Assembly: GCA_030390025.1 (NCBI GenBank)
Contig: CM059431.1
Location: 99,636,001-99,700,000 of the forward strand
DNA length: 64,000 bases
Direction of reading: 5' to 3'
DNA from: Squalus acanthias
Lineage: Eukaryota
Shown here: piece after piece, positions 3,001 through 64,000 of the stretch
Layout of the letters: each line of letters opens with the position of its first letter
Numbering within the stretch: position 1 is the stretch's first letter
The notes under the pieces: generated by a model
Told to the model about the DNA's origin: nothing
Database searches by the model: none
The model's input: only the letters and a program-made list of their open reading frames with translations
Made by a program: the position numbers and the translations under genes

Positions 3001-6000
3001 CCGGTATTCACCCCGACGGTTTTATACATCCGCCCGTTATACACCGCGCCTGTTACACATCACCTGTTATACACCGCCGGTTACACACTCGCCCGTTATA
3101 CACCCGCCCGTTACACACCCCACCTGGTTATACAACCCGCCCGTTATACCACCTGCCCATTATACACCTGCACATTAAAACACCCCGCCTGTTATTACAG
3201 CCGCCCGTTATCCACCCTGCAATTACACCCGCCCGTTATACAACCCCTAGTACCCTGCCCTTACACAGCCCGCCTATTATACACCCACCCGTTATATACC
3301 CCGCCTATTACACACGCCTGTTATACACCCCGCCTATTACAACTGCCCGTTATACACCCCGCCTATTATACACCCACCCGTTATACACCCCGCCTATTAC
3401 ACCCATCCGTTATACACACCGCCCATTATACACCCGTCCGTTATACAGCCTGCCTATTATACCCGCCCATTATTCACACCAGCCATTATACACCCGCCCG
3501 TTATACACCCCGCCTATTACACCCGCCCGTTATACACCCCGCCTATTACACCCGCCCGTTATACACCCCGTCTATTACACCCCGCCCGTTATACACCCCG
3601 TCTATTACACCCACCCGTTATACACCCCGCCTATTACACCCGCCCGTTATACACCCTGCCTATTACACCCGCCCGTTATACAGACTGCCCATTATACAGC
3701 CGCCCGTTATACACCCCGCCTATTACACCCGCCTGTTATACACACCGCCCATTATCCACCTGCCCATTATACACCCCTCCTATTACACCCACCAGTTATA
3801 CAACCGCCCGTTATACACCTGCCCGTTATACACCCCGCCTATTACACCCGCCCGTTATACACCCCGCCTATTACACCCGCCCGTTATACACCCGCCCGTT
3901 ATACACCCCGCCTATTACACCCACCCATTATACCCCCCGCCTATTACACCCGCCCGTTATACACCCCGCCTATTACACCCGCCCGTTATACACCCCGCCT
4001 ATTACACCCGTCCTTTATACACCCCGCCGGTTACACACATGCCCGTTATACACACTCCTTATATACACCCACACCCGCCCGTTATACTCCCGCCTGTTAG
4101 ACACCCACCCGTTATACACCCCGGCCGTTATACACCCCGCCTATTACACCCGCCCGTTATACACCCCACCTATTACACCCGCCCGTTAAACACCCGCCTA
4201 TTACACCCGCCCGTTATACACCCGGCTATTACACACGCCCGTTATACACCCCGTCTGTTACACACCCGCCCGTTATACACCCGCCCATTACACACCCCGC
4301 CCATTACACACACCCGACTGTTACACACACGCCCGTTAGACACCCGCCTGTTATACATCCCGTCTGTTATATACCCACTGTTAGACACCCTGCCTGTTAT
4401 ACACCCGCCCGTTACACACCCCGCCCGTTATACACCTACCCGTTACGCAGCCGCCCGTTACACACCCGCCCATTACACACCCGCTGTTACACACCCGCCC
4501 GTGAGACACCCGCCCGTTACATGCCCGGCATTTATACACCAACCTGTTATACTCCCGCCCGTTATAGATGACGCCCGTTATACACCCACCCATTATACAC
4601 CCGCCTGTTATACACCTGCCCATTATACACGACGCCCGTTATACACCCGCCCATTATACACCCGCCCGTTATACACCCGCCCGATATACACCCGCCCATT
4701 ATACACCCGCCCGTTATACACCCGCCCGTTATACACCCGCCAGTTATACACCCCGTCCTTTATACACCCGCCCGTTATACACCCCGACGGTTATAATTCC
4801 GCCCGTTATACACCCGCCTGTTACACATCCACCCGTTATATACCCGCCCGTTACACACCTGCCCGTTATAAACCCCGCCCGTTATACACCCGCCCGTTAT
4901 ACACCCCGCCCGTTATACACCTGCCCGTTACACACCCCACCTGTTATACACCCATGCGTTATACAACCGCCCGTTATACACCCTGCCAATTACACCCGCC
5001 CGTTATACACCCCATATTACACCTGCCCATTACACACCCCGCCTATTATACACCCACCCGTTATACACCCCGCCTATTACACCCGCCCGTTATACACCCG
5101 CCCGTTATACACCCCGCCTATTATACACCCACCCGTTATACACCCCGCCTATTACACCCGCCCGTTATACACACTGGCCATTATACACCCACCCGTTATA
5201 CACCCTGCCTATTACACCCACCCGTTATACACCCTGCCTATTACACCCGCCCGTTATACACCCCGCCTATTACACCCGTCCTTTATACACCCCGCCGGTT
5301 ACACACATGCCCGTTATACACACTCCCTATATACACCCACACCCGCCCGTTATACACCCCGCCCGTTATACACCCCGCCTATTACACCCGCCCGTTATAC
5401 ACCCCACCTATTACACCCGCCCGTTAAACACCCGCCTATTACACCCGCCCGTTATACACCCTGCCTATTACACCCGTCCGTTATACACACCGCCCATTAT
5501 ACACCTGCCCGTTATACACCCGGCTATTACACCCGCCCGTTATACACCCCGTCTGTTACACACCCGCCCGTTATACACCCGCCCATTACACACCCCGCCC
5601 ATTACACACCCGACTGTTACACACACGCCCGTTAGACACCCGCCCGTTATACATCCCGTCTGTTATATACCCACTGTTAGACACCCTGCCTGTTATACAC
5701 CCGCCCGTTACACACCCCTCCGTTATACACCTACCCGTTACGCAGCCGCCCGTTACACACCCGCCCATTACACACCCGCTGTTACACACCCGCCCGTGAG
5801 ACACCCGCCCGTTACATGCCCGGCATTTATACACCAACCTGTTATACTCCCGCCCGTTATAGATGATGCCCGTTATACACCCACCCATTATACACGCGCC
5901 TGTTATACACCCGCCCATTATACACGACGCCCGTTATACACCCGCCCATTATACACCCGCCCGTTATACACCCGCCCGATATACACCCGCCCATTATACA

Positions 6001-9000
6001 CCCGCCCGTTATACACCCGCCAGTTATACACCCCGTCCTTTATACACCCGCCCGTTATACACACCGACGGTTATAATTCCGCCCGTTATACACCCGCCTG
6101 TTACACATCCACCCGTTATATACCCGCCCGTTACACACCTGCCCGTTATACACCCCGCCCATTATACACCCGCCCGTTATACACCCCGCCCGTTATACAC
6201 CCGGCCTATTACACCCGCCCGTTATACACAGCGCCCATTGTACACCCGCCCGTTATAAACCCTGCCTATTACACCCGCCCGTTATACACCCCGCCTATTA
6301 CACCCACCCGTTATACACCCCACCTATTACACCCGTCCTTTATACACCCCGCCGGTTACACACATGCCCGTTATACACACTCCCTATATACACCCACACC
6401 CGCCCGTTATACACCTGTCTGTTAGACACCCACCCGTTATACACCCCGCCCGTTATACACCCCGCCTATTACACCCGCCCGTTATACACCCCACCTATTA
6501 CACCCGCCCGTTAAACACCCGCCTATTACACCCGCCCGTTATACACCCCACCTATTACACCCGCCCGTTATACACCCGGCTATTACACCCGCCCATTATA
6601 CACCCCGTCTGTTACACACCCGCCCGTTATACACCCGCCCATTACACACCCCGCCCATTACACACCCGACTGTTACACACACGCCCGTTAGACACCCGCC
6701 CGTTATACATCCCGTCTGTTATATACCCACTGTTAGACACCCTGCCTGTTATACACCCGCCCGTTACACACCCCGCCCATTATACACCTACCCGTTACGC
6801 AGCCGCCCGTTACACACCCGCCCATTACACACCCACTGTTACACACCCGCCCGTTAGACACCCCGCCCGTTACATGCCCGGCATTTATACACCCGCCTGT
6901 TATACACCCGCCCGTTATAGATGACCGCCCGTTATACACCCACCCATTATACACCCGCCTGTTATACACCCGCCCGTTATACACGACGCCCGTTATACAC
7001 CCCGCCCATTATACATCCCGCCCGTTATACACCCGCCCGATATACACCCGCCCTTATACACCCGCCCGTTATACACCCGCCCGTTATACACCCCGCCAGT
7101 TATACACCCCGTCCTTTATACACCCGCCCGTTATACACCCCGCCCGGTTATACATCCCGCCCGTTATAAACCCCGCCCTGTTACACCTCCCCCGTTATAC
7201 ACCCGCCCGTTACACACCCGCCCGTTATACACCCCGCCCGTTATACACCCGCCCGTTATACACCCCGCCCGTTATACACACCGCCCATTATACACCCACC
7301 CGTTATACACCCCACCTATTACACCCGCCCGTTATACACCCGCCTATTACACCCATCCGTTATACACACCGCCCATTATACACCTGCCCGTTATACACCC
7401 GGCTATTACACCCGCCCATTATACACCCCACATGTTACACACACGCCCGTTAGACACCCGCCCGTTATACACCCTGTCTGTTACACACCAGCCTGTACAC
7501 ACCCCGCCCGCTAAACACCTGCCCGTTACACACCCGCCCGTTACACACCCGCCCATTACACACCCGCTGTTACTCACCCGCCCGTTAGACACCCGCCCGT
7601 TACACACCAACCTGTTATACATCCCCGCCCGTTATAGATGACGCCCGTTATACACCCGCCCATTATACACCCGCCTGTTATACACCCGCCCATTATACAC
7701 GACGCCCGTTATACACCCGCCCATTAAACACCCGCCCGTTATACACCCGCCCGATATACACCCGCCCATTATACACCCGCCTGTTATACAGCCGCCCGTT
7801 ATACACCCGCCCGTTATACAACCCACCCGTTATACACCCTGCCCATTATACACCTGCACATTAAACACCCCGCCTGTTATACAGCCGCCCGTTATACATC
7901 CTGCCAATTACACCCGCCCGTTATACACCCCCTATTACACCTGTCCGTTACACACCCTGCCTATTATACACCCGTCCGTTATACACCCCGCCTATTACAC
8001 CCGTCCGTTATACACCCCGCCTATTACACCCGCCCGTTATACACCCCACCTATTACACCCGCCCGTTAAACACCCGCCTATTACACCCGCCCGTTATACA
8101 CCCCACCTATTACACCCGCCCGTTATACACCCGGCTATTACACCCGCCCGTTATACACCCCGTCTGTTACACACCCGCCCGTTATACACCCGCCCATTAC
8201 ACACCCCGCCCATTACACACCCGACTGTTACACACACGCCCGTTAGACACCCGCCCGTTATACATCCCGTCTGTTATATACCCACTGTTAGACACCCTGC
8301 CTGTTATACACCCGCCCGTTACACACCCCGCCCATTATACACCTACCCGTTACGCAGCCGCCCGTTACACACCCGCCCATTACACACCCACTGTTACACA
8401 CCCGCCCGTTAGACACCCGCCCGTTACATGCCCGGCATTTATACACCCGCCTGTTATACACCCGCCCGTTATAGATGACGCCCGTTATACACCCACCCAT
8501 TATACACCCGCCTGTTATACACCCGCCCATTATACACGACGCCCGTTATACACCCGCCCATTATACATCCGCCCGTTATACACCCGCCCGATATACACCC
8601 GCCCATTATACACCCGCCCGTTATACACCCGCCCGTTATACACCCGCCAGTTATACACCCCGTCCTTTATACACCCGCCCGTTATACACCCCGACGGTTA
8701 TACATCCGCCCGTTATAAACCCGCCTGTTACACATCCACCCGTTATATACCCGCCCGTTACACACCCGCCCGTTATACACCCCGCCCGTTATACACCCGC
8801 CCGTTATACACCCCGCCCGTTATACACACCGCCCATTATACACCCACCCGTTATACACCCCACCTATTACACCCGCCCGTTATACACCCGCCTATTACAC
8901 CCATCCGTTATACACACCGCCCATTATACACCTGCCCGTTATACACCCGGCTATTACAGCCGCCCATTATACACCCCACATGTTACACACACGCCCGTTA

Positions 9001-12000
9001 GACACCCGCCCGTTATACACCCTGTCTGTTACACACCAGCCTGTTACACACCCCGCCCGCTAAACACCTGCCCGTTACACACCCGCCCGTTACACACCCG
9101 CCCATTACACACCCGCTGTTACTCACCCGCCCGTTAGACACCCGCCCGTTACACACCAACCTGTTATACATCCCCGCCCGTTATAGATGACGCCCGTTAT
9201 ACACCCGCCCATTATACACCCGCCTGTTATACACCCGCCCATTATACACGACGCCCGTTATACACCCGCCCATTAAACACCCGCCCGTTATACACCCGCC
9301 CGATATACACCCGCCCATTATACACCCGCCTGTTATACAGCCGCCCGTTATACACCCGCCCGTTATACAACCCACCCGTTATACACCCTGCCCATTATAC
9401 ACCTGCACATTAAACACCCCGCCTGTTATACAGCCGCCCGTTATACATCCTGCCAATTACACCCGCCCGTTATACACCCCCTATTACACCTGTCCGTTAC
9501 ACACCCTGCCTATTATACACCCGTCCGTTATACACCCCGCCTATTACACCCGCCCGTTATACACCCCGGCTATTATACACCCACCCGTTATACACCCCGC
9601 CTATTACACCCGCCCGTTGTACACCCGCCCGTTATACACCTGCCCATTATACACCCGTCGGTTATACACCCCGTCCTTTATACACCCGCCCGTTATACAC
9701 CCGCCCATTATACACCCGTCGGTTATACACCCCGTCCTTTATACACCCGCCCGTTATACACCCCGACGGTTATACATCCACCCATTATACACCCACCCGT
9801 TACACACCCGCCCGTTATACACCGGCCCATTATACACCCCGCCCATTATACACCTACCCGTTACACACCCCACCCGTTATACACCCACGCGTTATACACC
9901 CCGCCCGTTATACACCCTGCCCATTATACACATGCCTGTTACACACCCTGTCAGTTATACACCCGCCCGTTATACACCCGCCCGTTACAAACCTGCCCGT
10001 TACACACCCCGCCCGTTACAAACCTGCCCGTTACACACCCCGCCCGTTACACACACGCCCGTTATACACCCGCCCGTTACACACCCCGCCCGTTATACAC
10101 CCACCCGTTATACACCCGCCCGTTATACACCCTGCCCGTTATACTCCCCGCCCGTTTTACACACTCCCATTATACACCCACCCGTTATATACCCGCCCGT
10201 TATACACCCGCCCGTTACACACCCGCCTGTTACACACCCGCCGGTTACACACCCGCCCGTTATACACCCCGCCCGTTACACACCCGCCCGTTATACACCC
10301 GCCCGTATACAGCCGCCCATTATACACCCCGCCCGTTACACACCCGCCCGTTACACAACCCGCCCGTTATACACCCGCCCGTTATACAGCCGCCCATTAT
10401 ACACCCCGCCCATTACACACCCGCCCGTTATACAACCTGCCCGTTACACACCCGCCCGTTATACACCCGCCCGTTACACACCCGCTCGTTATACACACGC
10501 CCGTTACACACCCCGCCCGTTATACACCCGCCCGTTATACACCCGCCCGTTATACATCCGCCCGTTATACACCCACCTGTTATACACCCGCCCGTTATAC
10601 ACCCCGCCCATTATATACCCGCCCGTTATACACCCGCCCATTATACACCCACCCATTATACACCCCGCCCGTTATACACCCGCCCGTTATACACCCGCCC
10701 GTTATACACCCGCCCGTTATACACCAGCCCGTTATACACCCCGCCCGTTATACACCCCGCCCGTTATACACCCGCCCGTTATACACCCGCCCGTTATACA
10801 GCCGCCCATTATACACCCGCCCATTATACACCAGCCCGTTATACACCCCGCCCGTTATACACCCCGCCCGTTATACACCCGCCCATTATACACCCCGCCC
10901 ATTATACACCCGCCCATTATACACCAGCCCGTTATACACACACCCGTTATACACGCCGCCCATTGTACACCCGCCCGTTATACACCCCACCCGTTATACA
11001 CCCGCCCGTTATACACCCGCCCGTTATACACCCGCCTGTTATACACCCGCCTGTTATACACCCGCCCGTTATACACCAGACCGTTATACACCCGCCCGTT
11101 ATACACCCACCCGTTATACACCCACCCGTTATACACCCGCCCATTATACACCAGCCCGTTATACACCCGCCCGTTATACACCCACCCGTTATACACCCGC
11201 CCATTATACACCAGACCGTTATACACCCTGCCCGTTATACACCCCGCCCGTTATACACCCCGCCCGTTATACACCCGCCCGTTATACACCCGCCCGTTAT
11301 ACACCCGCCCATTATACACCCCGCCCGTTATACACCCGCCCGTTATACACCCGCCCATTATACACCCGCCCATTATACACCCCGCCCGTTATACACCCGC
11401 CCATTATACACCCACCCGTTATACACCCGCCCGTTATACACCCGCCCATTATACACCCGCCCATTATACACCCCGCCCGTTATACACCAGACCATTATGC
11501 ACCAGACCGTTATACACCCGCCCATTATACACCCGCCCGTTATACACCCTCCCGTTATACACCCGCCCATTATACACCCGCCCATTATACACCAGACCGT
11601 TATACACCCTCCCGTTATACACCCGCCCATTATACACCCGCCCATTATACACCCCGCCCATTATACAACCCGCCCGTTATACACCAGACCGTTATACACC
11701 TACCCGTTACACACCACACCCGTTATACACCCACGCGTTATACACCCCGCCCGTTATACACCCTGCCCATTATATACCTGCCCGTTACACACCCCGCCCG
11801 TTATACACATGCCTGTTACACACCCCGCCCGTTACACACACGCCCGTTATACACCCGCCCGTTACACACCCCGCCCGTTATACACCCACCCGTTATACAC
11901 CCGCCCGTTATACACCCTGCCCGTTATACTCCCCGCCCGTTTTACACACTCCCATTATACACCCACCCGTTATATACCCGCCCGTTATACACCCGCCCGT

Positions 12001-13797
12001 TACACACCCGCCTGTTACACACCCGCCGGTTACACACCCGCCCGTTATACACCCCGCCCGTTACACACCCGCCCGTTATACACCCGCCCGTTATACAGCC
12101 GCCCATTATACACCCCGCCCGTTACACACCCGCCCGTTATACAACCCGCCCGTTATACACCCGCCCGTTATACAGCCGCCCATTATACACCCCGCCCGTT
12201 ACACACCCGCCCGTTATACAACCTGCCCGTTACACACCCGCCCGTTATACACCCGCCCGTTACACACCCGCTCGTTATACACACGCCCGTTACACACCCC
12301 GCCCGTTATACACCCGCCCGTTATACACCCGCCCGTTATACATCCACCCGTTATACACCCACCCGTTATACACCGCCGTTATACACCCGCCCGTTATACA
12401 ACCCGCCCGTTATACACCCGCCCATTATACACCCACCCATTATACACCCCGCCCGTTATACACCCGCCCGTTATACACCCGCCGTTATACACCAGCCCGT
12501 TATACACCCCGCCCGTTATACACCCCGCCCGTTATACACCCGCCCGTTATACACCCGCCCGTTATACACCCGCCCATTATACACCCCGCCCATTATACAC
12601 CCGCCCATTATACACCAGCCCGTTATACACCACACCCGTTATACACCCCGCCATTGTACACCCGCCGTTATACACCCCACCCGTTATACACCCGCCCGTT
12701 ATACACCCGCCCGTTATACACCCGCCCGTTATACACCCGCCCGTTATACACCCGCCCGTTATACACCCGCCCGTTATACACCAGACCGTTATACACCCGC
12801 CCGTTATACACCCGCCCGTTATACACCCAGCCCGTTATACACCCGCCCAGTTATACACCAGCCCGTTATACACCCGCCCGTTATACACCCGCCCATTATA
12901 CACCAGACCGTTATACACCCCGCCCGTTATACACCCGCCCGTTATACACCCGCCCGTTATACACCCGCCCGTTATACACCCGCCCGTTATACACCCGCCC
13001 GTTATACACCCCCCATTATACACCCCGCCCGATATACACCCGCCCGTTATACACCCGCCCGTTATACACCCGCCCATTATACACCCCGCCAGTTATACAC
13101 CCGCCCATTATACACCCCCCCGTTATACACCCGCCCGTTATACACCCGCCCATTATACACCCGCCCATTATACACCCCGCCCGTTATACACCCAGCCCAT
13201 TATACACCAGCCCGTTATACACCCCGCCCGTTATACACCCCTCCCGTTATACACCCGCCCATTATACACCCGCCCATTATACACCAGACCGTTATACACC
13301 CTCCCGTTATACACCCGCCCATTATACACCCGCCCATTATACACCCCGCCCATTATACACCCCGCCCGTTATACACCAGACCGTTATACACCCGCCCATT
13401 ATACACCCCGCCCGTTATACACCCACCCATTATACACCCGCCCATTATACACCCGCCCATTATACACCCGCCCATTATACACCCACCCGTTATACACCCG
13501 CCCGTTATACACCCCGCCCGTTATACACCCGCCCATTATACACCAGCCCGTTATACACCCACCCGTTATACACCCGCCCGTTATACACCCCGCCCGTTAT
13601 ACACCCGCCCGTTATACACCCGCCCATTATACACCCCGCCCGTTATACACCAGACCATTATACACCCCACCCGTTATACACCCGCCCATTATACACCCCG
13701 CCCGTTATACACCAGACCATTATACACCCCGCCCGTTATACACCAGACCATTATACACCCCGCCCGTTATACACCAGACCATTATACACACACCCGT
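1..13797. repeat. C-rich tandem satellite, monomer about ACACCC(C)GCCCGTTAT (15-16 bp, with 13-14 bp CCTATTAC variants); runs off the left edge
   Basis: Continuous array of roughly 900 monomers with CpG-decay variants (CCCATT, CCTGTT, CCCACCC). All long Pro/His/Thr/Tyr-rich ORFs here are repeat artefacts. Confidence 0.98.
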
Positions 13798-13859
13798 TAA
13801 TTTTAAGTGACTTAATTGGAAATGAATATGAGTCAGTTTTTGAATGGGCTTCCAATCTG

Positions 13860-14560
13860 CTACGGCCTTTATTGAGTTCCTGCCAAAGTCGAAGTTCTTC
13901 CTCATGTTGTTGGTGATTATGCTGTATCTTGCATTTCTTGGTGTTAAATTTAATTTTCTCTTTTTCTTGGCAGTTACATAACCAATCTAAATCCTTCTGT
14001 AAATCCTTCACTGCATAATCTGTCTTTTCTGTTCTCCCAATGGAATGGTTAACCAATTGGATGGGCTTACATTTGCTTTCTGTATCCAAGTCATTTGTAT
14101 AATTTAGAACTAAGGGCAGTGGGAGCACTGACCCCTGCCTGCCTCGAATCAGCATTTCTCCCTGAACTGACATCATTCTCAGGAGTATTCTTCGCTTCCT
14201 AATTTTCTAGCCGGTTTCTTATCCAGTCTTGCATTCCGTGGGTTCTAATGAAAGGATTCGACACAAAACATTAACTAACTTGCAGGTGCTGATGGTTCTG
14301 CTCTTCATTTCCAGCAATTTCTATTTTTATTCTGAAGTTCTACCCTAGATTCCTGCGGCTAGTCGTTTAATTTGAAGTCTTTCGTGTGGAACTTTTTCAA
14401 AAGCTATCTGAAAGCCGAAGTAAACAATAACATAAGGAATTCCACTGTCTATTTTATCTTAATCATCCTCAAAAGAGGTTTTGTCAGCCTGGACCTTCGT
14501 CCTATAAATCCAAGTTGGCCACTTTCTATTGTTATTGCCAAATAGGTATTCCTCCAACCT
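13860..14560 (-). mobile_element. Old, highly decayed CR1-type LINE RT fragment
   Basis: Minus-strand remnants VYFGFQIAFEKVPHERL, QGSVL, NDLD and LQKDLDWL...KFNTKKCKI. Confidence 0.75.
14242..14335 (+). mobile_element. Degenerate Penelope-type terminal-repeat fragment inside the old CR1
   Basis: gttctaatgaaaggattcgacacaaaacattaact...tttccagcaatttctatttttattc is a decayed version of the repeat at 14935-15040. Confidence 0.5.
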
Positions 14561-23624: not shown

Positions 23625-24919
23625 CTGCGTGAAATGGCTAATACTAAGCTGACTGGAACCCTTCCACCTCCTTGATAACACACCCAGCACAGTGTTCTCT
23701 TTCCTACGCGGCAGTAACTGAATGAGTCGTGCCATTTTGAATTGAGTTATTTCACTGTAAAAAGACATTTAACCGTGCCTCAGTGCTATGTTATATTTGG
23801 ATTTTCTCCATGTCTTTTATATTGGTGACTTTTGCGTCTAAACTTAAATCAGCTCTGGCTCTCTCATGGGCATGAATACCCCATAAAAATATCCAGATCT
23901 GATCCAAGCTGACATCGTAGGTTGATTCCTGGGATGAGAGTGTTGAGAGGGCTGTCCTATGAAGGTAGAGAGGCGCAGAATTCTTAAAATGTATTCAGGA
24001 GAACTTTTTTCATCAGTATATAGCAAGCCCAACAAGAGAGGGGGAGCCGTTGTGGACTTGGTTTTAGGGAATGAAGCTGGGCTGGTGGAAGGGGTATCAG
24101 TGGGAGAGCTTTTTGGCGGTAGTGAGCATACTTCAGTTAGATTTAGCATAGTTATGGAAATGGACAAAGGTAGACCAGGGGAAAAAGTTCTCAATTGGGG
24201 AAAGGCTAATTTTACTAAGCTGAGATGTGATTTCGTAAAAGTGGACTGGAAACAGCTACTTGAAGGTAAATCAGTGTCAGAGCAGTGGGAGGTGTTCAAT
24301 GAGGAGACAGTGAGGGTTCAGAGCAAATTTGCTCCCACAAAGAAAAAGGGTGGGACTCCCAAATCTAGAGCCCCTGGATGTCAAGGGGTAGGCAGGGTAG
24401 GATAAGACAAAAAAGGGAAGCTTATGTCAGATACCGAGTGCTAAATACTGCAGAAAGCCTAGAGGAGTATAGAAAGTGCAGGGGTGAAATTAAGAAGGAA
24501 ATTAGGAAAGCAAAGAGAGGGCATGAAAAATATTGGCAAGTAACATCAAGGAAAACCCAAAGATGTTTTAGAAATACATAAAGAGCAAGAGGATAACGAA
24601 AGCAAGTAGGGCCTATAAGAGACCAAAAAGGTAACCTGTGTGTGGAGGCGGAAGACGTGGGTATGGTTCTTCATGAATACTTTGTGCCTGTTTTCACAAA
24701 AGAGAGGGATGATGCAGACATTGTAGTTAAGGAGGAGTGTGAAATATTAGATGAGATAAACATATTGAGAGAGGAAATATTAAAGGATTTAACATCATTG
24801 AAAGTAGATAAATCGGCAGGCTCAGATGAAATGTATCCCAGACTGTTAAGAGAGGCAAGGGATGAAATAGCAGAGGCTCTGACCATCATTTTCCAATCCT
24901 CTCTGGCTACAGGTGTGGT

Positions 24920-24998
24920 CAAAATTGAGAGGTCGCACAACACCAGGTTATAGTCCAACAGTTTTATTTGAAATCACAAGCTTTCGGAGCTATCGATC
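24920..24998 (-). mobile_element. Penelope-type terminal-repeat fragment with the 3' half of a hammerhead
   Basis: Reverse complement reads gctccGAAAGCTTgtgatttcaaataaaactgttggactataacctggtgttgtg. It interrupts the CR1 at ggtgtggt|gccagag. Confidence 0.55.
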
Positions 24999-26405
24999 GC
25001 CAGAGGTGCCAGAGGACTGGAGGACTGCTAATGTGGTACCCTTGTTTAAAAAGGGAGAAAGGGATAGACCGAGTAATTACAGGCCAGTCAGCCTAACCTT
25101 GCTGGTGGGCAAATTATTGGAAAAAATTCTGAGGGACATTATTAATCGTCATTTGGAAAGGCACAGATTAATCAAGGACAGTCAGCATGGATTTGTTATG
25201 GAAAGTCGTATCTGACTAACTTGATTGAATTTTTTGAGGAGGTAACAAGGAGGGCCAATGAGATTAGTATGTTTGATGTAGTCTACATGGATTTTAGCAA
25301 GGCTTTTGACAAGGTCCCACATGGCAGACTAGTCAGAAAAGTAAAAGCCCATGGGATCCAAGGCAAAGTGGCAAGTTGGATCCAGAATTAGCTCAGAGGC
25401 AGGAAACAAAGGGTAATGGTCGAAGGGTGTTTTTGTGACTGGAAGGCTGTTTCCAGTGGGGTTCCGCAGGGCTCAGTACTGGGTCCCTTGCTTTTTGTGG
25501 TATATATCGATGATTTAGACTTCAATGTAGGGGTATGATTAAGAAGTTTGCAGATGATACAAAAATTGTCCGTGTCTTTGATAGTGAGGAAGAAAGCTGT
25601 AGACTGCAGGAAGATATCAATGGACTGGTCAGGTGGGCAGAACAGTGCCAAATGGAATTCAATCCAGAGAAGTGTGAGGTAATATATTTGGGGAGGGCTA
25701 ACAAGGCAAGGGAATACACAATAAATGGTAGGACACTGAGACATACAGAGGATCAGAGGGACCTTGGAGTGCATGTCCACAGATCTCTGAAGGTAGCAGG
25801 ACAGGTAGATAAGGTGGTTAAGAAGGCATATGGGACTCTTGCCTTTATTAGCCAAGGCATAGAATATAAGAGCAGGGAGGTTATGCTAGAACTTATTAAA
25901 AAACTAGTTAGGCCACAGCTAGAGCACTGCGTACAGTTCTGGTCACCACGGGGGCGATTTTCTGACGCTGGAGGAGGCGGGTTTGGAGGCAGGAAAGGCG
26001 GGAAAATCAGAAACAATGAGGGCGGGTTCGGAACCCGCCTCCAACCCGCCTCCAATCCTCCACCGCGGGATTTTGCCAGTGCCGGATTTGGAGGTCGGGA
26101 AACAGTTCCGCCTCCAGCTGGCCATAGTGTTAGTTAACATGATTAAATGCTCGTTAAGGACCTCTCTAAGCCTATTTTGAGAGGCCCTGGCGGGTTGACT
26201 CATGGGTGGCCTCCTCACAGCTGCAGGTCCAACAATATATCGTTTATTTCATCAAGGATTACTTGCAGGTGCCAGACCTTGGGTTTAATAGGTCTCTGAG
26301 CACTTTTAGAAGGCCTTCCGAAGTCGGAGGTGCTGCAGCTTGAATCTATCAACTGTGGGACCTCCTTGGAAGACCCTCTCCCCGCTTGCAATGAGCGCTT
26401 CCCCA

Positions 26406-27851
26406 ATGGAGGCATCTGCAAGCAGCATGGGAACCATTCGTTTTCTTTCTCCATGGACCTCAGATGAGGATGAGGACCATCCACGGCAGCAGCAGAACCA
26501 GGCAGCTCAGGAGCAACACCAGCAGGAGCCCCAACCTCCTGCTTAGGAGCAACAGCAGCAGGAGCCCCAACCTCCTGCTTAGGAGCAACAGCAGCAGGAG
26601 CCCCAACCTCCTGCTTAGGAGCAACAGCAGCAGGAGCCCCAACCTCCTGCTTAGGAGCAACAGCAGCAGGAGCCCCAACCTCCTGCTTAGGAGCAACACC
26701 AGCAGGAGCCCCAACCTCCTGCTCAGCCACCTGATGCTGCACAGGGCAGAAGGCACCAGCGCATCGAGGCACCTCGCCGCAGAAGATACCCCCGACAGAG
26801 GGTTTACAGACAGAGGATGAGCTATCTCAACATGAGTGAGCAGCAGTGCCAAAGGAGGCTGAGACTTTCGCGAGAGGTTGTCCGAGAGATCTGCGGCCTG
26901 CTGCAGCAAGACCTGGTGCCCAGAGGAACAGGGTGGACACCCCTTACCAGTGGCTGTCAAAGTCACCACCGCACTCAACTTCTTTGCCTCAGGCTCCTTC
27001 CAGGGATCATCAGCGGCATCTCCCAGTCGGCCGCCCACAGTTGCATCACACATGTTACTGATGCCCTTTTTGCTAAGGCCCACAATTACATCCAGTTCAC
27101 AAGGGATCAAGCAAGTATAACCGCTGTTTGGTTGGCTTTGCAAATATGGCAGGCATGCCAATGGTGCAGGGCATCATAGACTGCACACATGTGGCCCTTA
27201 GGGCACCCCATCACAACCCAGCTATCTTTGTCAACCGAAAGGGCTTCCACTCCCTCAACGTTCAGCTGGTGTGTAACCACAAGAAGGAGTTCTTGCATGT
27301 TTGCGCCAAGTTCTGTGGAAGTTGCCATGACTCTTTCATCCTGCTGCACTCTAGTGTTCCTCCGCTTTTCAATCCACCAAACCAACTTAACGGATGGCTC
27401 CTTGATGAAAAAGCTACCCCCTGAAGAAGTTGCTAATGACGCCGATCAGGAGGCCAGCTAACGAGGCTGAAGAGCGCTACAACGCCAGCCACACTTCGAC
27501 CAGGTCCATCATAGAGCAAACCATTGGGTTGTTGAAGATGCGCTTCCGTTGCCTTGACCAATCAGGTGGAGCCCTGCAGTATACACCATACAGGGTCTCC
27601 AGAATGGTTGTGGTCTGCTGTACACTGCACAACATCACACAGCGTCGTGGCTTGCCGCTTCCTGATGAGCAGATGAGGATCAGGAGGAGGAGGAGGAGGA
27701 GGAGGATCTGGAGGAGGAGGAGGAGCAGGAGCAGGAGGAGAAGCAGGAGGAGGTCAGAGCGCCGGTGTATCGACCAGCGGCAGCGGCAGCACGCGAGCAC
27801 ATGGCTGCCCGGGATGCAAGGGATGAACTTATCATGGCCAGATTTGCATAG
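26406..27851 (+). pseudogene. Harbinger (HARBI1-like) DDE transposase pseudogene
   Basis: [80 protein letters not shown] and CCTLHN, with several frameshifts and stops. Confidence 0.92.
26511..26726 (+). repeat. 36-bp minisatellite, 6 copies, in the transposase N-terminus
   Basis: GAGCAACA(C/G)CAGCAGGAGCCCCAACCTCCTGCT(T/C)AG x6. Confidence 0.95.
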
Positions 27852-28089
27852 GTTGCCCAAGTTGGCACATGTCCTTGGCTCCATCCTAGGACATCATTGA
27901 CAATGGACATGACTCTCTGGCCTCCTTTCACTCAGGCCACCAACCTGACAATGCAAGTGTGGCGGAGGCCGCAATGTGGAGCTGCCTAAGGCGAAAGAAC
28001 AGATGGCATAACGCCAACATTCTGGCTTCAAATCATTTTAATGCTTTCCAACAGGGATGGTATTTCATCAATACACAGAAACAGTCTCC

Positions 28090-28278
28090 CAATCTGTACA
28101 CAGATCTGGAGGTTATATCCCTTGCCAGCTGTACCCTCACAGCCTTGGTTTCTTTGGCAGGCCTCTTCCTCCCAGATGAGTGGAAGAGCACCTCCCTGCT
28201 AGCTGTCACCCCCTCAAACAACATTTGCAGCACCTCATCTGAGAGCCTCGGGGAGGCTCTTGCCTTGGAATTGGACAT
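28090..28278 (-). pseudogene. Harbinger Myb/SANT-like gene, N-terminal remnant
   Basis: MSNSKARASPRLSDEVLQMLFEGVTASREVLFHSSGRKRP..QLARDITSRSV. Confidence 0.72.
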
Positions 28279-29090
28279 AGGTTTCTCAAAATATGTTGCA
28301 GGTGGTGCAGGAGAAGCAGAAATACTGTGGAAGGAGCCAAGGGAGCAAGAAGCCATAAAATCAGGCAGGAAAAGTGCTGTCAACAGAGGCGAGTTTCAGT
28401 CCCAAAACATTAATTGAGCAAGGGCATCCCACACCTCTGAAATCAAGTGGAAAATCATGGGAAAAATCGCAAAATTTTGAAAACTATCAGTGGAGGCGAG
28501 TTTCAAACCCACCCAAACTGAAACCCGCCTCCATCTCACCTCCAGTGAGAAAATCGCCCCCACATTACAGGAAAGATGCGATTGCACTAGAGAGGGTATA
28601 AAGGAGATTTACGAGGATGTTGCCGGGACTGGAGAATTTTAGATATAGGGAAAGATTGGATAGGCTGGGGTTGTTTTCTTTGGAGCAGAGGAGGCTGAGG
28701 GGAGACCTGATTGAGGTGTATAATATTATGAGGGGCCTAGATAGAATGGATAGGAAGCACCTATTTCCCTTAGCAAAGAGGTCAATAACTGGGGGCATAG
28801 ATTTAAAGTAATTGGTAGAAGGATTAGTGGGGAGTTGAGGAGAATTTCTTTCACCCAGAGGGTGGTGGGGGTCCAAAACTCACTGTCTGAAAGGGTGGTA
28901 GAGGCAGAAACCCTCATCGCATTTAAAAAGTACTTGGATGTGCACTTGAAGTGCCGTCACCCACAGGACTACGGACCAAGAGCTGGAAAGTGGGATTAGG
29001 CTGGATGGTGCTCTTTCTCGGCCGACACAGACACGATGGGCCGAATAACCTCCTTCTGTGCCATAAACTTCTATGATTCTTTGATTCTAT

Positions 29091-57244: not shown

Positions 57245-57652
57245 GGTAGCATAGTGGTGATGCCACTGGGCTAGTAATCCCGTAGGCCTGGACTAATGAT
57301 CCAGAGACATGAGTTCAAATCCCACCACGCCAGCTGGGGAATTTAAATTCAGTTAATTAAATAAATCTGGAATAAAAATCTAGTAATGGTGAGCATGAAA
57401 CTACCGGATTGTTGTAAAAACCCATCTGGTTCACTAATGTCCTTTAGGGAAGGAAATCTGCCGTCCTTACCCAGTCTGGCCGATATGTGACTCCAGACCC
57501 ACAGCAATGTGGTTGACTCTTAACTGCCCTCTGAAATGGCCCAGCGAGTTACTCAGTTGTATTCACCAGCACCTTCTCGAGGGCGACTGGGGACGGGCAA
57601 TAAATGCCGGCCTCGCCAGCGACGCCCACATCCCGTGAATGAATTTTTAAAA
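57245..57652 (+). mobile_element. Near full-length tRNA-headed SINE (head and tail of the LINE at 58497)
   Basis: A box TAGCATAGTGG (57247) and B box GTTCAAATC (57313). Body matches 58497-58813; tail matches 62167-62245. Confidence 0.88.
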
Positions 57653-58112
57653 ACAGCCACGATGGGTTTTGAGCTCATGTCTCTGGATTAAATAGTCCAG
57701 GCCTCTGGATTGCTCATCTAGTAACATAACCACTACACTACCGTGCCCAGAAAATTGCACTCATATCTTCCAAAAAATTTCTATTACAGTACCACGGTCA
57801 ACAGAAAAAAAGCTAATTTCACACACAGATTTGCTGGAATGATTTTCGGAGTTCTGTGTGACCCCAGTGTGGGAGCAGATGTGTCATGTTTTGGTACAAT
57901 AATACCCGGGAATGAAGACTGCAATGAGAGCAAATACATTTAATTCTGAAGTTTATTTTTAGTTGTTTCTCAGAAGCGATTGATTGACAGCTCGTTGCGT
58001 TTTGTGTTGTAACCGTGTGATGGTCCCTTTGGGCAGGAGGCAGATCACAGATAAGAAAGAAACAATCTGCTTTCCTGATAAACAGTTCAATACCCAGTGA
58101 CAAAAATTGTGT

Positions 58113-58484
58113 TCTCTCACACTCACACTCACTCACACTCACACTCACACACTGACACTCACACTCACACTCACTCACTCACACACTCATACACAAACAC
58201 ACTCACTCACTCTCACACTCACACACAGACACACTCACACTCACACACAGACACACACACACTCACACTCTCTCACATTCACTCACACTCACACAGACAC
58301 ACACTCACTCACACTCACACACAGACATACACTCACTCACTCACACACTCACTCACACACAGACACACACTCACTCATTCTCTCACTCACACACTCTCTC
58401 GCACTCACACACACAGACACACTCTCGCACACTCATACTTTCTTGCACTCACACACACTCTCGCACTCACACACTCTCGCGCAC
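58113..58484. repeat. Degenerate (CA)/(CACT) microsatellite
   Basis: Low-complexity cacactca tract. Confidence 0.95.
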
Positions 58485-58496
58485 GGGAACGTTAAG

Positions 58497-61400
58497 TAGA
58501 GTAGTGGTGATGTCACTGGACTAGTAATCCAGAGGCCTGGACTAATGATCCAGAGACGTGAGTTCAAATCCCACCGCGGCAGCTGGGGAATTTAAATTCA
58601 GTTAATTAAATAATCTGGAATAAAAAGCTAGTATCAGTAATGGTGACCATGAAACTATTGGATTGTTGTAAAAACCCATCTGGTTCACTGATGCCCTTTA
58701 GGAAAGGAAATCTGCTGTCCTTACCTGGTCTGACCTATATGTGACTCCAGACCCACAGCAATGTGGTTGACTCTTATCTGCTCTCTGAAATGGCCGAGCG
58801 AGTCACTCAGTTGTAACAAACTGCTACGAAACACAATAATAAGAATGAAACCGGACAGACCACCCGGCATCGACCTCGGCTATGGACATGGCAATAGCAC
58901 ACCCAGCCCAGTCCTTCTCACAAACATCTGGGGACTTGTGCCAATAATTGGGAGAGCTGTCCCACAGACTAGTCAAAGCAACAGCCTGACATAGTCACAC
59001 TCACACTCACAGAATCATACCTTTCAGCCAAACTCCTCCATCACCATCCCTGGGTATGTCATGTCCCGCCGGCAGGACAGACCCACCAGGGGTGGTGGCA
59101 CAGTGGTATACAGTCGGGAAGGAGTGGCCCTGGGAGTCCTCAACATTGACTCCGGATCTCATGGCTTCAGGTCAAGCATGGGCAAGGAAACCTCCTGTTG
59201 ATTACCACCTACCACAGCTGATGAATCAGTACTCCTCCATCTTGAACACCACTTGGAAGAAGCACTGAGAGTAGCAAGGGCACAGAATGTACTCTGGGTG
59301 GGGGACTTCAATGTCCATCACCAAGAGTGGCTCAGTAGCACCACAGCTGGCCGAGTCCTAAAGGTCATAGCTGCCAGTCTGAGCCTGCGACAGGTGGTGA
59401 GAGAACCAACACGAGGGAAAAACCTACCTGACCTCGTCCTCACCAATCTACCTGTCGCAGATGCATCTGTCCATGACAGTATTGGTAGCAGTGACCACCG
59501 CACAGTCATTGTGGAGACGAAGTCCTGTCTGGACACCCTCCATTGTGTTGTGTGGCACTACCACCGTGCTAAATGGGATAGATTCAGAACAGATCTAGCA
59601 GCTCAAAACTGGGCATCCATGAGGCACTGTGGGGCAGCAGCAGAATTGTATTCCACCACAATCTGTAACCTTATGGCCCGGCATATCCCTCACTCTACCA
59701 TTACCATCAAGCCAGGGGACCAACCCTGGTTCAATAAGGAGTGTAGAAGAGCATGCCAGGAGCACCACCAGGCGTACCTAAAAATGCGGTGAAAACCTGG
59801 GGAAGCTGCAACACAGGACTACATGCATGCTAAAAAGCGGAAGCAGCATGCTATAGACAGGGCTAAGTGATCCCACAATCAACGGATCAGATCAAAGATC
59901 TGCAGTCCTGTCGTGAATGGTGGTGGACCATTAAACAACTAACGGGAGGAGGAGGCTCCATGAATATCCCCATCCTCAGTGATGGTGGAGCCCAGCATGT
60001 GAGTTTTTTTTTAATTCGCTTATGGGATCTGGGCGTCGCTGGCAAGGCCAGCATTTATTGCCCATCCCTAGTTGCCCTTGAGAAGGTGGTGGTGAGCCGC
60101 TTTCTTGAACTGCTGCAGTCCGTGTGGTGAAGGTACTCCCACAGTGCTGTTAGGGAGGGAGTTCCAGGATTTTGACCCAGCGACGATGAAGGATCAGCGA
60201 TATATTTCTAAGCCAGGATGTTGTGTGACTTGGAGGGGAACTTGGAGGTGGTGGTGTTCCCATGCGCCTGCTGCCCTTGTCCTTCTAGGTGGAAGAGGTC
60301 ACAGGTTTGGGAGGTGCTGCCAAAGAAGCCTTGGCGAGTTGCTGCACTGCATCTTGTAGATGGTACACACTGCAGCCACGGTGCGCCCGTGGTGGAGGGA
60401 GTGAATGTTTAAGGTGGTGGATGGGGTGCGAATCAAACGGGCTACTTTGTCCTGGATGGTGTCGAGCTTCTTGAGTGTTGTTGGAGCTGCACTCATCCAG
60501 GCAAGTGGAGAGTATTCCATCACACTCCTTAATTGTGCTTTGTAGATGGTGAAAAGGCTTTGGGGAGTCAGGAGGTGAGACACTCGCCGCAGAATACCCA
60601 GCCTCTGACCTGCTCTTGTTGCCACAGTATTTCTGTGGCTGGTCATTAAGTTTCTGGTCAATGGTGACCCCCCAGGATATTGATGGTGGGGGATTCAGTG
60701 GTGGTAATGCCGTTGAATGTCAAAGGACAGTAGTTAGATGCTCGCTTGTTGGAGATAGTCATTGCCTGGCACCTCTGTGGTGCGAATGTTACCTGCCACT
60801 TATCAGCCCAAGCCTGAACATCATCTAGGTCTTGTTGCACGTGGGAAGCTGCATCACAGGACTACATGCATGCTAAAAAGCTGAAGCAGCATTCTATAGA
60901 CAGGGCTAAGCGATCCCACAATCAACGATCAGATCAAAGCTCTGCAGTCCTGCCACATTCAGTCGTGAATGGTGGTGGACCATTAAACAACTAACGGGAG
61001 GAGGAGGCTCCATGAATATCCCCATCCTCAATGATGACGGAGCCCAGCATGTGAGTGCAAACGACAAGGCTGAAGCGTTTGCAACCATCTTCAGCCAGAA
61101 GTGCCGAGGGGATGATCCCTATCGGCCTACTCCCAAGGTCCCCACCATCACAGAAGCCAGTCTTCAGCCAATTCGACTCACTCCACTTGTTATCAAGAAA
61201 TGGCTGAGCACACTGGATACAGCAAAGGCTATGAGCCCTGACAATATCCCAGCTATCGTGCTGAAGACTTGTGCTCCAGACCTAGCCGCGCCTCTAGCCA
61301 AGCTGTTCCAGTACAGCTACAACACTGGCATCTATCCGACAATGTGGAAAACTGCCCAGGTATGTCTTGTCCACAAAAAGCAGGACAAATCCAATCCGGC

Positions 61401-62250
61401 CAATTACTGTCCCATCAGTCTACTCTCAATCATCAGCAAAGTGATGGAAGGTGTCATTGACAGTGCTATCAAGCGGCACTTACTCACCAATAACCTGCTC
61501 ACCGATGCCCAGTTTGGGTTCCGGCAGGACCACTCAGCTCCAGATCTCATTACAGCCTTGGTCCAAACATGGACAAAGGAGCTGAATTCCAGAGGTGAGG
61601 TGAGAGTGACTGCCCTTGTAATCAAGACAGCATTTGACCGAGTGTGGCATCAAGGAGCCCTAGTAAAACTGAAGTCAATGGGAATCTGGGGGAAAACTCT
61701 CCATGGGCTGGAGTCATACCTAGCACAAAGGAATATGGTTGTGGTGGTTGTAGGTCAATCATCACAGCCCCAGGACATCGCTGCAGGAGTTCCTCAGGGC
61801 AGTGTCCTAGGCCCAACCATCTTCAGCTGCTTCATCAATGACCGTCCCTCCAACATAAGGTCAGAAATGGGGATGTTCACTGATGATTGCACAGTGTTCA
61901 GCGCCATTCACAACTCCTCAGATACCGAAGCAGTCCATGGCCCGCCCCTCCCAAACCCGCGGCCTCTCCCACCTGGAAGGACAAGGGCAGCAGGCACATG
62001 GGAACACCATCACCTCTAAGTTCCCCTCCAAGTCACACACCATCCTGAGTTAGAAGTATATCGCCGATCCTTCATCGTCGCTGGGTCAAAATCCTGGAAC
62101 TCCCTCCCTAACAGCACTGTGGGAGCACCTTCACCACACGGACTGCAGCGGTTCAAGAAGGCGGCTCACCACCACCTTCTCAAGGGGCAACTAGGGATGG
62201 GCAATAAATGCTGGCCTTGCCAGCGACCCCCACATCCCATAAACAAATTA
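58497..62250 (+). mobile_element. tRNA-headed APE-RT non-LTR retrotransposon (CR1-group-like); composite of two copies
   Basis: SINE-like head, then APE (TNIWGL, QQPDIV..TESYL, DRPTRGGG, VGDFNVHH, DLVLTN, SDH) and RT (NYCPISLLS, QFGFR, AFDRVWH, GVPQGSVLGP, FTDD). Tail gggcaataaatgctggcc. Confidence 0.88.
60004..61944 (-). mobile_element. Second copy of the same LINE, nested, with a 5' inversion
   Basis: 60004-60842 is the 3' part on - (QQDLDDVQAWADKWQVTF through the tail). 60843-61944 is the adjoining upstream RT part on +. Confidence 0.7.
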
Positions 62251-62256
62251 AACAAA

Positions 62257-64000
62257 ACTCAGACACACACACTCACACACACACTCACACACACTCTCGC
62301 ACTCAGACACACACACTCGCACTCACACACACACTCACACACTCTCTTGCACTCAGACACACACACTTGCACGCACACTCACACACACTCGCACTCACCA
62401 CACACACACTCACACTCACACACACTCGCACTCACACACACATTCACACACACTCGCACTCACACACACACTCGCACTCTCACACACACTCACACACACT
62501 CACACACACTCGCACTCTCACACACACTCTCTCGCACTCACACACACTCACATGCACACTCGCACTCTCACACACTCGCACTCACACACACTCGCACTCA
62601 CACACACACTCGCACTCACACACACACTCTCTCGCACTCACACACACACTCACATGCACACTCACACACACTCGCACTCACACACACACACACACACTCA
62701 CACTCACACTCACACACACTCTGACACACACTCACACACACTCGCACTCGCTCACACACTCACACACACTCGCACTCAGACACACACTCGCACACACTCA
62801 CACACACACACACACTCACACACACTCGCACTCAGACACACACTCGCATGCACACTCACACTCTCTCGCACTCGCACACACTCACACACACTTGCACTCA
62901 GACACACACTCGCACGCACACTCATACACACTCACACACTCTCTCGTACTCACACACTCTCTCGCACTCAGACACACTCGCATTCGCACACACTCGCACG
63001 CACACTCACGCACACACACTCTCGCATTCACACACTCGCACTCAACACTCTCTCGCACTCACACACTCTCGCACTCACACACTCTCTCGCACTCACACAC
63101 TCTCTCGCACTCGCGCACACACTCGCACACACATTCACACTCGCATTCACACTCGCACACACACTCGCACTCAACACTCTCTTGCACTCACACACTCTCT
63201 CGCACTCACACACTCTCTCGCACTCACACACACGCTCACACACTCTCGCATTCAGACACATGTTCACACACTCTCGCACTCACTCTCGCACTCAGACACA
63301 CGCTCACACACTCTCGCACTCACACACACTCGCACTCAGACACACGCTCACACACTCTCGCATTCAGACACACGCTCACACACTCTCGCACTCACACATG
63401 CTCGCACTCAGACACACTCGCACTCACTCTCGCACTCAGAAACACGCTCACACACTCTCACTCACACACTCTCGCACTCAGACACACTCGCACTCAGACA
63501 CACACTCACACACACTCGCACTCACACTCTCGCACTCACTCTCTCGCACTCAGACACACGCTCACACACACTCGCACTCACATTCTCGCACTCACACACT
63601 CTCGCACTCAGACACACGCTCACACACTCTCGCACTCAGACACACGCTCACACACTCTCGCACTCACACTCTCGCACTCAGACACACGCTCACACACTCT
63701 CGCACTCACTCTCGCACTCAGACTCACGCTCACACACTCTCGCACTCACTCTCGCACTCAGACTCACGCGTACACACTCTCGCTCTCACTCTCGCACTCA
63801 CACACTCTCGCACTCACACACTCTCGCACTCACTCTCGCACTCAGACACACGCTCACACACTGTTGCACTCAGACACACTCGCACTCAGACACACTCGCA
63901 CTCAGACACACTCGCACTCAGACACACGCTCACACACTCTCGCACTCACACACTCTCTCGCACTCAGACACACGCTCACACACTTTCGCACTCACACTCT
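62257..64000. repeat. CA-rich low-complexity tandem repeat (cacacactctcgcactca / cagacacacgctca units); runs off the right edge
   Basis: Continuous simple-sequence tract. Confidence 0.95.

Follow-up and report, generated by a model that had tools for sequence, protein, structure and literature searches.

The 64,000-nucleotide (nt) stretch of Squalus acanthias DNA described here (contig CM059431.1, positions 99,636,001 to 99,700,000; hereafter the window) contains, between its positions 58484 and 62257, copies of a retrotransposon family of about 3.3 kb, which is composed of a tRNA-derived head, a body of approximately 230 nt shared with a short interspersed nuclear element (SINE), one open reading frame (ORF) and a short tail. 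The 5' untranslated region (UTR) of this long interspersed nuclear element (LINE) is the whole front end of a SINE, and the sibling SINE equals the LINE minus its interior, an arrangement that was not found in the literature searched. The junction between the SINE module and the ORF is inherited, the full-length copies have a common 5' end, the ancestral ORF is intact, and runs of T are depleted on the sense strand to a degree that is specific to the family. The best reading of these features, to which we give about even chances, is that RNA polymerase III (Pol III) transcribed the template RNA from the head. From the sequence we infer both this mode of transcription and that the element may have supplied its own protein.

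A probe spanning the junction (window positions 58700-58930) yielded 6448 first-look candidates in the 3.7-Gb genome, and all 39 non-self scored matches cross the junction. As this probe favours junction-bearing copies, an ORF-only probe (58930-59330; 2590 first-look candidates, 40 scored matches) was used to obtain an unbiased sample of 29 non-self loci. Of these, 23 cross the same junction into the SINE body: ten reach the start of the head (58483-58513), and 13 end at various points within the head or body (58548-58789), the pattern that 5' truncation of reverse transcripts would give. The other six copies start at 58811-58843; two of them, L032 and L044, represent in duplicate a single rearranged locus in which body sequence still lies upstream. 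Of the 34 rows displayed, 33 have exactly the same junction sequence. All eight full-length copies align from head to tail over ~3.25 kb with 88-92% identity, and on both sides, 5' and 3', they are flanked by unrelated DNA. In a tree of 50 copies the topology is star-like, the divergence from the majority sequence is 3.0-3.5%, and the junction-start copies are interspersed among the head-bearing ones. The recurrence of the head-ORF junction in independent copies, which a preliminary description of this stretch had put forward as a check, is thus borne out by both samples (39/39 and 23/29), and the junction is inherited by a dispersed family and does not stem from a chance SINE insertion. L032 and L044 lie on different contigs, where a body fragment is followed by ~750 nt of other DNA and then by the LINE from the equivalent of window position 58838; they look like a segmental duplicate.

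The boundary between the modules is set by a SINE of ~400 nt located 1.2 kb upstream in the window (57245-57645), which is 90% identical to 58496-58815 and continues from there with the LINE tail, so that 58815|58816 is a true module boundary. A search of the own genome with this SINE gave 5103 first-look candidates, the best 40 of which were scored at 85-93% identity. The SINE is short and non-coding (the limit used being less than ~700 nt), whereas the LINE, at 3.25 kb with 973 codons, lies outside this definition. Full-length copies of the LINE begin with GGG(A/T)ACGGTAGC, as do the SINE copies, the 5' end of the 14 aligned SINE copies being the same as that of the LINE family; alignments of other copies begin at window equivalents 58482-58513, and the DNA further upstream is unrelated. 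In the head, 13 SINE copies form a cluster separate from the 29 LINE heads, by one or two diagnostic sites only. We take the SINE body to be probably of the V-SINE/HE1 type. Copies usually end in GAAT(A)n; in the sibling SINE copy (57630-57650) and in two (L064, L066) of the nine aligned LINE 3' ends (those of the eight full-length copies and the window copy), GAAT is followed by at least five T before the A-run.

The segment had been described as a single element extending from 58497 to 62250. Mapping to family coordinates, which refer to the majority letter per column of 58 family rows, instead shows that 58484-62257 consists of parts of two copies, one nested in the other. The features are as follows.

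58120-58480: CACT/CA-rich simple-repeat array, identified by direct reading, forming the left flank of the element; the same array resumes at 62260-64000
57245-57645, plus strand: sibling SINE copy, in which head and body are followed directly by the final 95-115 nt of the LINE tail
58484-58583, plus strand: tRNA-derived head, 5' end of the family, with the A box at 58497-58507 and the B box at 58562-58570
58584-58815, plus strand: SINE body common to the sibling SINE, ~230 nt, with an ATG (58761-58763) in frame with the ATG at 58845
58816-60003, plus strand: part A, the first (5') 1.2 kb of the LINE ORF, with the endonuclease domain and a linker, assigned by tblastn with pieces of the family ORF and by Pfam; together with head and body (58484-60003) it corresponds to majority coordinates 1-1594
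60004-60842, minus strand: part B, the last (3') 839 nt of a second copy (majority coordinates 2482-3321), whose poly(A) appears as poly(T) at 60004-60013
60843-61943, plus strand: part C, the inverted 5' segment of the second copy, RVT_1 region (majority coordinates 1381-2482)
61944-62257, plus strand: part D, the tail at the 3' end of the plus-strand copy (majority coordinates 3008-3315), with the GAAT/A-rich terminus common to the SINE

Parts A and D are the remains of a head-bearing plus-strand copy from which ~1.4 kb has been lost; the 3' end of part D aligns with the eight full-length copies. Parts B and C are a minus-strand copy with a 5' inversion: part B encodes, on the minus strand, the C-terminal part of the reverse transcriptase (tblastn), and part C ends at family coordinate 2482, which is the exact start of part B. 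The order of C followed by B on the minus strand is the geometry expected of twin priming, a layout familiar from L1. Within the 213 nt of family coordinates that both A and C cover, the two parts are only 91% identical, as two separate copies would be.

Counts of T-runs on the sense strand are given here as runs of at least three (T3+) or at least four (T4+) residues. The sense-strand parts of the segment (58497-60003 and 60843-62250, 2915 nt) contain no T4+ and six T3+ runs, compared with composition-based expectations of 4.2 and 20.4, respectively; the absence of T4+ runs from these parts had been noted by eye, as had the one sense-strand T4 in part B (plus-strand AAAA at 60552), and both counts were confirmed. 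At the level of the family, the majority sequence (19.5% T) is likewise free of T4+ (3.9 expected) and contains seven T3+ runs (19.8 expected) as against 47, 38 and 52 such runs of A, G and C, respectively; the ratio of observed to expected T3+ runs in the family is 0.31-0.35. When synonymous codons of the majority ORF were shuffled, the five T3+ runs observed there were contrasted with 11.2 expected (P 0.0015), with runs of A, G and C occurring as expected. The 58 copies (116.8 kb) together contain 21 T4+ runs, i.e., 0.18 per kb, and 42 of the copies have none; among the eight full-length copies, six have none and the other two have one each.

Other LINEs do not share this depletion. Three other LINE ORFs of the same genome with a comparable T content (0.20-0.21; two of the three share an N-terminus) have six, five and six T4+ runs (1.8-2.7 per kb) and 27, 24 and 18 T3+ runs, which is at or above expectation. 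A younger LINE nested in the loci L086-L088, of which the nested parts alone were taken as controls, has three to seven T4+ runs in 0.6-1 kb. For 47 distant LINE ORF stretches from metagenome contigs, the median was 7.3 T4+ runs per kb (range 0-17), and the observed/expected ratio for T3+ had a median of 1.09 and a minimum of 0.60. The T3+ depletion of the family is more extreme than that of all 53 control LINE stretches, and the comparison with other LINE families that had been suggested at the outset therefore came out in favour of depletion, and the majority sequence, being free of sense-strand T4, lacks the normal T4 frequency that would have spoken against the proposal. None of 80 metagenome LINE contigs is close to the family (at most 47% amino acid identity) or has the head pattern upstream of its ORF. 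A Pfam scan of 95 other ORFs for further control LINEs gave only two small pieces, which were left unused.

Another comparison offered in the preliminary description fared less well. The region 23945-29090 of the window does contain many T4+ runs (24), but it is a mix of elements and not an ordinary CR1: similarity to reverse transcriptase is confined to ~24372-25942, and a transposase ORF lies elsewhere in it. This ORF (27409-27897) is of the DDE_Tnp_4 (PIF/Harbinger-type) kind. Loci L086-L088 were considered as relatives with a different 3' half and rejected, being family copies with the younger LINE nested in frame; their chimeric open frames have 627-971 codons, and L086 and L088, which have the same nest, are likely duplicates of one locus.

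The majority sequence has a single open frame (coordinates 324-3242, 973 codons), which opens directly after the junction TAA in most copies and ends ~60 nt before the 3' end; in the window copy this TAA (58814-58816) is in the endonuclease frame. In Pfam searches, a 372-amino-acid open piece of L063 matched Exo_endo_phos_2 (E 3.7e-13) and Exo_endo_phos (E 8e-08), and the family ORF matched RVT_1 (E 3.6e-33 and 1.6e-26). The endonuclease match begins at most ~80 nt from the junction, and the majority sequence contains no ORF1 and has no room for a normal one, in agreement with the initial observation of a SINE-like body running almost straight into the endonuclease. With an APE-type endonuclease and a reverse transcriptase in the same frame, and with dispersed copies that share the 3' end, are truncated at variable 5' points and have unrelated flanks, the family is a LINE; its relatives in protein databases are unnamed proteins of at most 43% identity. 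A short frame (199-495), the ATGs of which correspond to window positions 58761 and 58845, extends into the beginning of the long frame and is out of frame with the endonuclease in most copies. A 14-bp deletion between AGTC repeats fuses the short and the long frame in the window copy and in about six of 34 rows, and the ATG at 58845-58847 of the window copy is in frame through this deletion. With a broken ORF in each of the eight full-length copies, the family seems to be extinct in this genome. The 26 shared non-CpG variants comprise 12 synonymous and 14 non-synonymous ones, and 13 of the 26 fall on third codon positions, which is a weak indication that the masters may have been under coding constraint, i.e., purifying selection.

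Both promoter boxes reported at the start of the element are present. The A box of the window copy, TAGAGTAGTGG (58497-58507), has one mismatch to TRGCNNAGTGG, the family copies mostly having TAGCGTAGTGG, and the B box GTTCAAATC is located at 58562. ARAGORN called a tRNA-like gene at 58511-58583 of the window head, and the Rfam tRNA model scored 27.6 bits there, under the gathering score of 29. Because ARAGORN and Rfam are mostly blank on the other copies, box patterns were used for the test of the head. The A-box/B-box pattern occurs at the head of five of the eight full-length copies; in 279 kb of control LINE contigs it has three matches, none of them upstream of the ORF. Best matches to the A box in 29 head-bearing rows, several of which begin up to 35 nt inside the element, have no mismatch in nine rows, one in six, two in four and three in ten, and the B box has one mismatch in 21 of the 29.

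In the Pol III reading, the head would be a type-2 internal promoter, and full-length copies are proposed to start at the first nucleotide of the SINE because the head acted in this way. The 3.3-kb unit would have been purged of sense-strand T-runs, allowing Pol III to read through to the tail, and the tail would have been recognised by the reverse transcriptase of the LINE as it is for the SINE. Pol III appears to be the simplest account since the copied RNAs began at the first base of the SINE and stop signals are scarcer than in other LINEs. The preliminary description had gone further and proposed an autonomous LINE transcribed by Pol III; the inherited junction and the depletion of terminators hold, and from them we infer, with corresponding caution, transcription by Pol III and translation of the same RNA. 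The stronger version, in which a single uncapped 3.3-kb RNA with a 5' triphosphate, made by Pol III only, would have served as both messenger and template, is unlikely. Under it the conserved SINE body might be a cap-independent leader, ribosomes might reach the long frame without a conventional AUG, through a frameshift or through re-initiation from the short overlapping ORF, and the sibling SINE could be an internally deleted form of the LINE.

Several observations weigh against transcription by Pol III. By covariance model the head is a poor tRNA: none of the eight full-length copies was called by ARAGORN, and the Rfam tRNA model matched one of them (24.7 bits). The absence of T4+ runs is by itself a weak signal, since synonymous-codon shuffles of the majority ORF give an expectation of 1.8 (P 0.12) and shuffles that keep dinucleotides give P 0.09-0.40 per copy; the strong signal lies in the T3+ runs and in the comparison with other LINEs, so that the proposed check against codon-shuffled controls gave a clear signal for T3+ and a weak one for T4+ taken alone. 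As the whole family derives from about one burst, the depletion counts statistically as that of a single ancestral sequence. A headless sister family was not found, and for this reason the order in which the head was acquired and the T-runs were lost cannot be shown. A diverged relative with a similar tail (L018, 1744-3190; 76-81% identity), possibly an older sister lineage, has one T4+ run in 1.46 kb and is uninformative on this order. In most copies there is no ATG near the start of the long frame, the first in-frame ATG of the majority form being at codon 286, and the four junction-start copies other than L032 and L044, which begin 5-34 nt upstream of the ATG at 58845 and have unrelated DNA further upstream, may reflect a second, Pol II-type start. 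No RNA record was listed for 58440-60003; contigs of four runs from four organisms, which may or may not be RNA, cover all 30 bins, the one with the junction included, and nothing on expression is drawn from them. Finally, Pol III is regarded as poorly processive and LINEs are said to use RNA polymerase II (Pol II) in excerpts of two papers (PMC10886601, PMC2881922).

Pol II transcription of an element that had captured a SINE 5' module as its 5' UTR, in a promoter replacement brought about by template switch or insertion, is the first alternative, and we regard it as rather doubtful. Transcription would then begin at, or close to, the same nucleotide, possibly with the help of head-bound TFIIIC, and the low number of T-runs would have some other cause. 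According to an excerpt of PMC2881922, LINEs frequently exchange their 5' UTRs and promoters, and those LINE promoters that have been characterised are of the Pol II type; the ancestral ORF is intact, a capped mRNA gives a simple account of its translation, and an AATAAA lies ~45 nt before the 3' end. However, initiation by Pol II would need to fall on the very nucleotide at which the SINE itself begins, three poly(A)-signal hexamers lie 111-131 nt from the 5' end, and there is no known cause for a loss of T3+ and T4+ runs beyond that of the 53 control LINE stretches, those of equal T content included.

A division of labour, in which the Pol III RNA would be a template only, as in a 'giant SINE', and the protein would come from a capped Pol II mRNA starting just upstream of the junction ATG, either in these copies or in a different LINE that has the same tail, is quite improbable, although all of the evidence for Pol III applies to it and the problem of translating an uncapped RNA is removed. 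Four of the 29 ORF-only copies (six with L032 and L044) start at 58811-58843, i.e., 2-34 nt upstream of the ATG at 58845, whereas about two junction starts are expected if 5' ends are spread evenly over 58548-58843. Nevertheless, the interspersion of these copies with head-bearing ones in the tree means that they may be plain truncations, an alternative 5' UTR was not seen in the 29 copies, and cis-preference would favour copying of the mRNA, yet head-bearing copies dominate.

Recurrent formation of chimeras that never replicated as a unit, either by LINE insertion at a preferred SINE site or by template switching from LINE to SINE RNA, is extremely improbable and largely refuted: the small number of diagnostic sites between SINE and LINE heads speaks for it, but the junction is the same to the base in 33/34 rows, 5' truncation points are scattered over head and body, the two sets of heads cluster apart, and a SINE remainder follows the 3' end in 0/8 full-length copies. 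The possibility that the LINE nested at a specific site of SINE copies was rejected on the same ground, no SINE remainder being present behind any of the eight LINE tails.

Of known systems, the HE1 V-SINE and its partner LINE HER1, reportedly described from sharks and rays by Ogiwara et al. in 1999 and 2002 with only the tail common to both, resemble the present pair in the tRNA-derived head, the conserved body, the 3' tail common to a SINE and a CR1-like LINE, and the cartilaginous-fish type of genome. There, as far as described, the tail alone is shared, whereas here the LINE carries the SINE head and body as its 5' end. This work is cited in PMC3747384 (table and reference list) and PMC4824008, both of which are referred to here from excerpts. 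Replacement of the 5' UTR or promoter in CR1 subfamilies and L1, as covered by an excerpt of Han 2010 (PMC2881922), similarly joins a new 5' module to a conserved ORF and is inherited by a subfamily; the known modules are Pol II promoters, in contrast to the complete Pol III unit of a SINE and the loss of T-runs seen here. The same excerpt gives the Pol II rule for LINEs, the frequency of promoter replacement and the exception of R2. R2 and R1 are comparable in that a LINE RNA not made by Pol II has to be translated without a normal cap, and they differ in being co-transcribed by Pol I from the host rRNA gene, site-specific and devoid of an internal promoter (PMC2881922).

Bipartite non-autonomous LINEs (Kojima 2018, PMC5786205) likewise comprise SINEs and LINEs that share 5' and 3' sequences, the SINE being the long element minus its interior. 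In the excerpted text of that paper, however, such sharing is given only for the RTE and Vingi clades, Pol II is assumed for the long partner, and no LINE with a small-RNA head appears. The TRIMp3 elements Cassandra, Helenus and Ajax (Kojima 2024, PMC10886601, excerpt) have a Pol III promoter derived from a small RNA on a retroelement other than a SINE, but are short, non-coding long terminal repeat retrotransposons; it is argued there that autonomous partners must use Pol II, since Pol III is poorly processive. A description of a LINE with a small-RNA head was not found in the literature searched, although Repbase, Dfam or deposited consensus sequences may already show one. A coding LINE with a SINE promoter and shed terminators challenges the division into Pol II for LINEs and Pol III for SINEs as it is drawn in excerpts of PMC10886601 and PMC2881922. 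If the Pol III reading is true, the family would possibly be the first protein-coding LINE copied by Pol III, a use for the conserved SINE body would be suggested, and the translation of an uncapped retrotransposon RNA would become a concrete question. It would also link the origin of a SINE and that of its LINE through one composite element and make testable an idea attributed to Okada and Hamada, as cited by Kojima 2018.

Two further observations concern the surroundings of the family. Very long simple-repeat arrays of the CA/CACT type occupy positions 1-14300 and 58080-64000 of the window and produce, in each of the three frames of the plus strand, spurious open frames of 500-1500 codons. 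The search of the own genome with RVT_1 gave 418,424 first-look candidates, some of the matches having open frames of 1107-1307 codons, and several pairs of matches ~7.2 kb apart on one contig (for example, C4:122058965/122066134, C11:65379635/65386806 and C4:50968271/50975461) suggest tandemly duplicated young elements.

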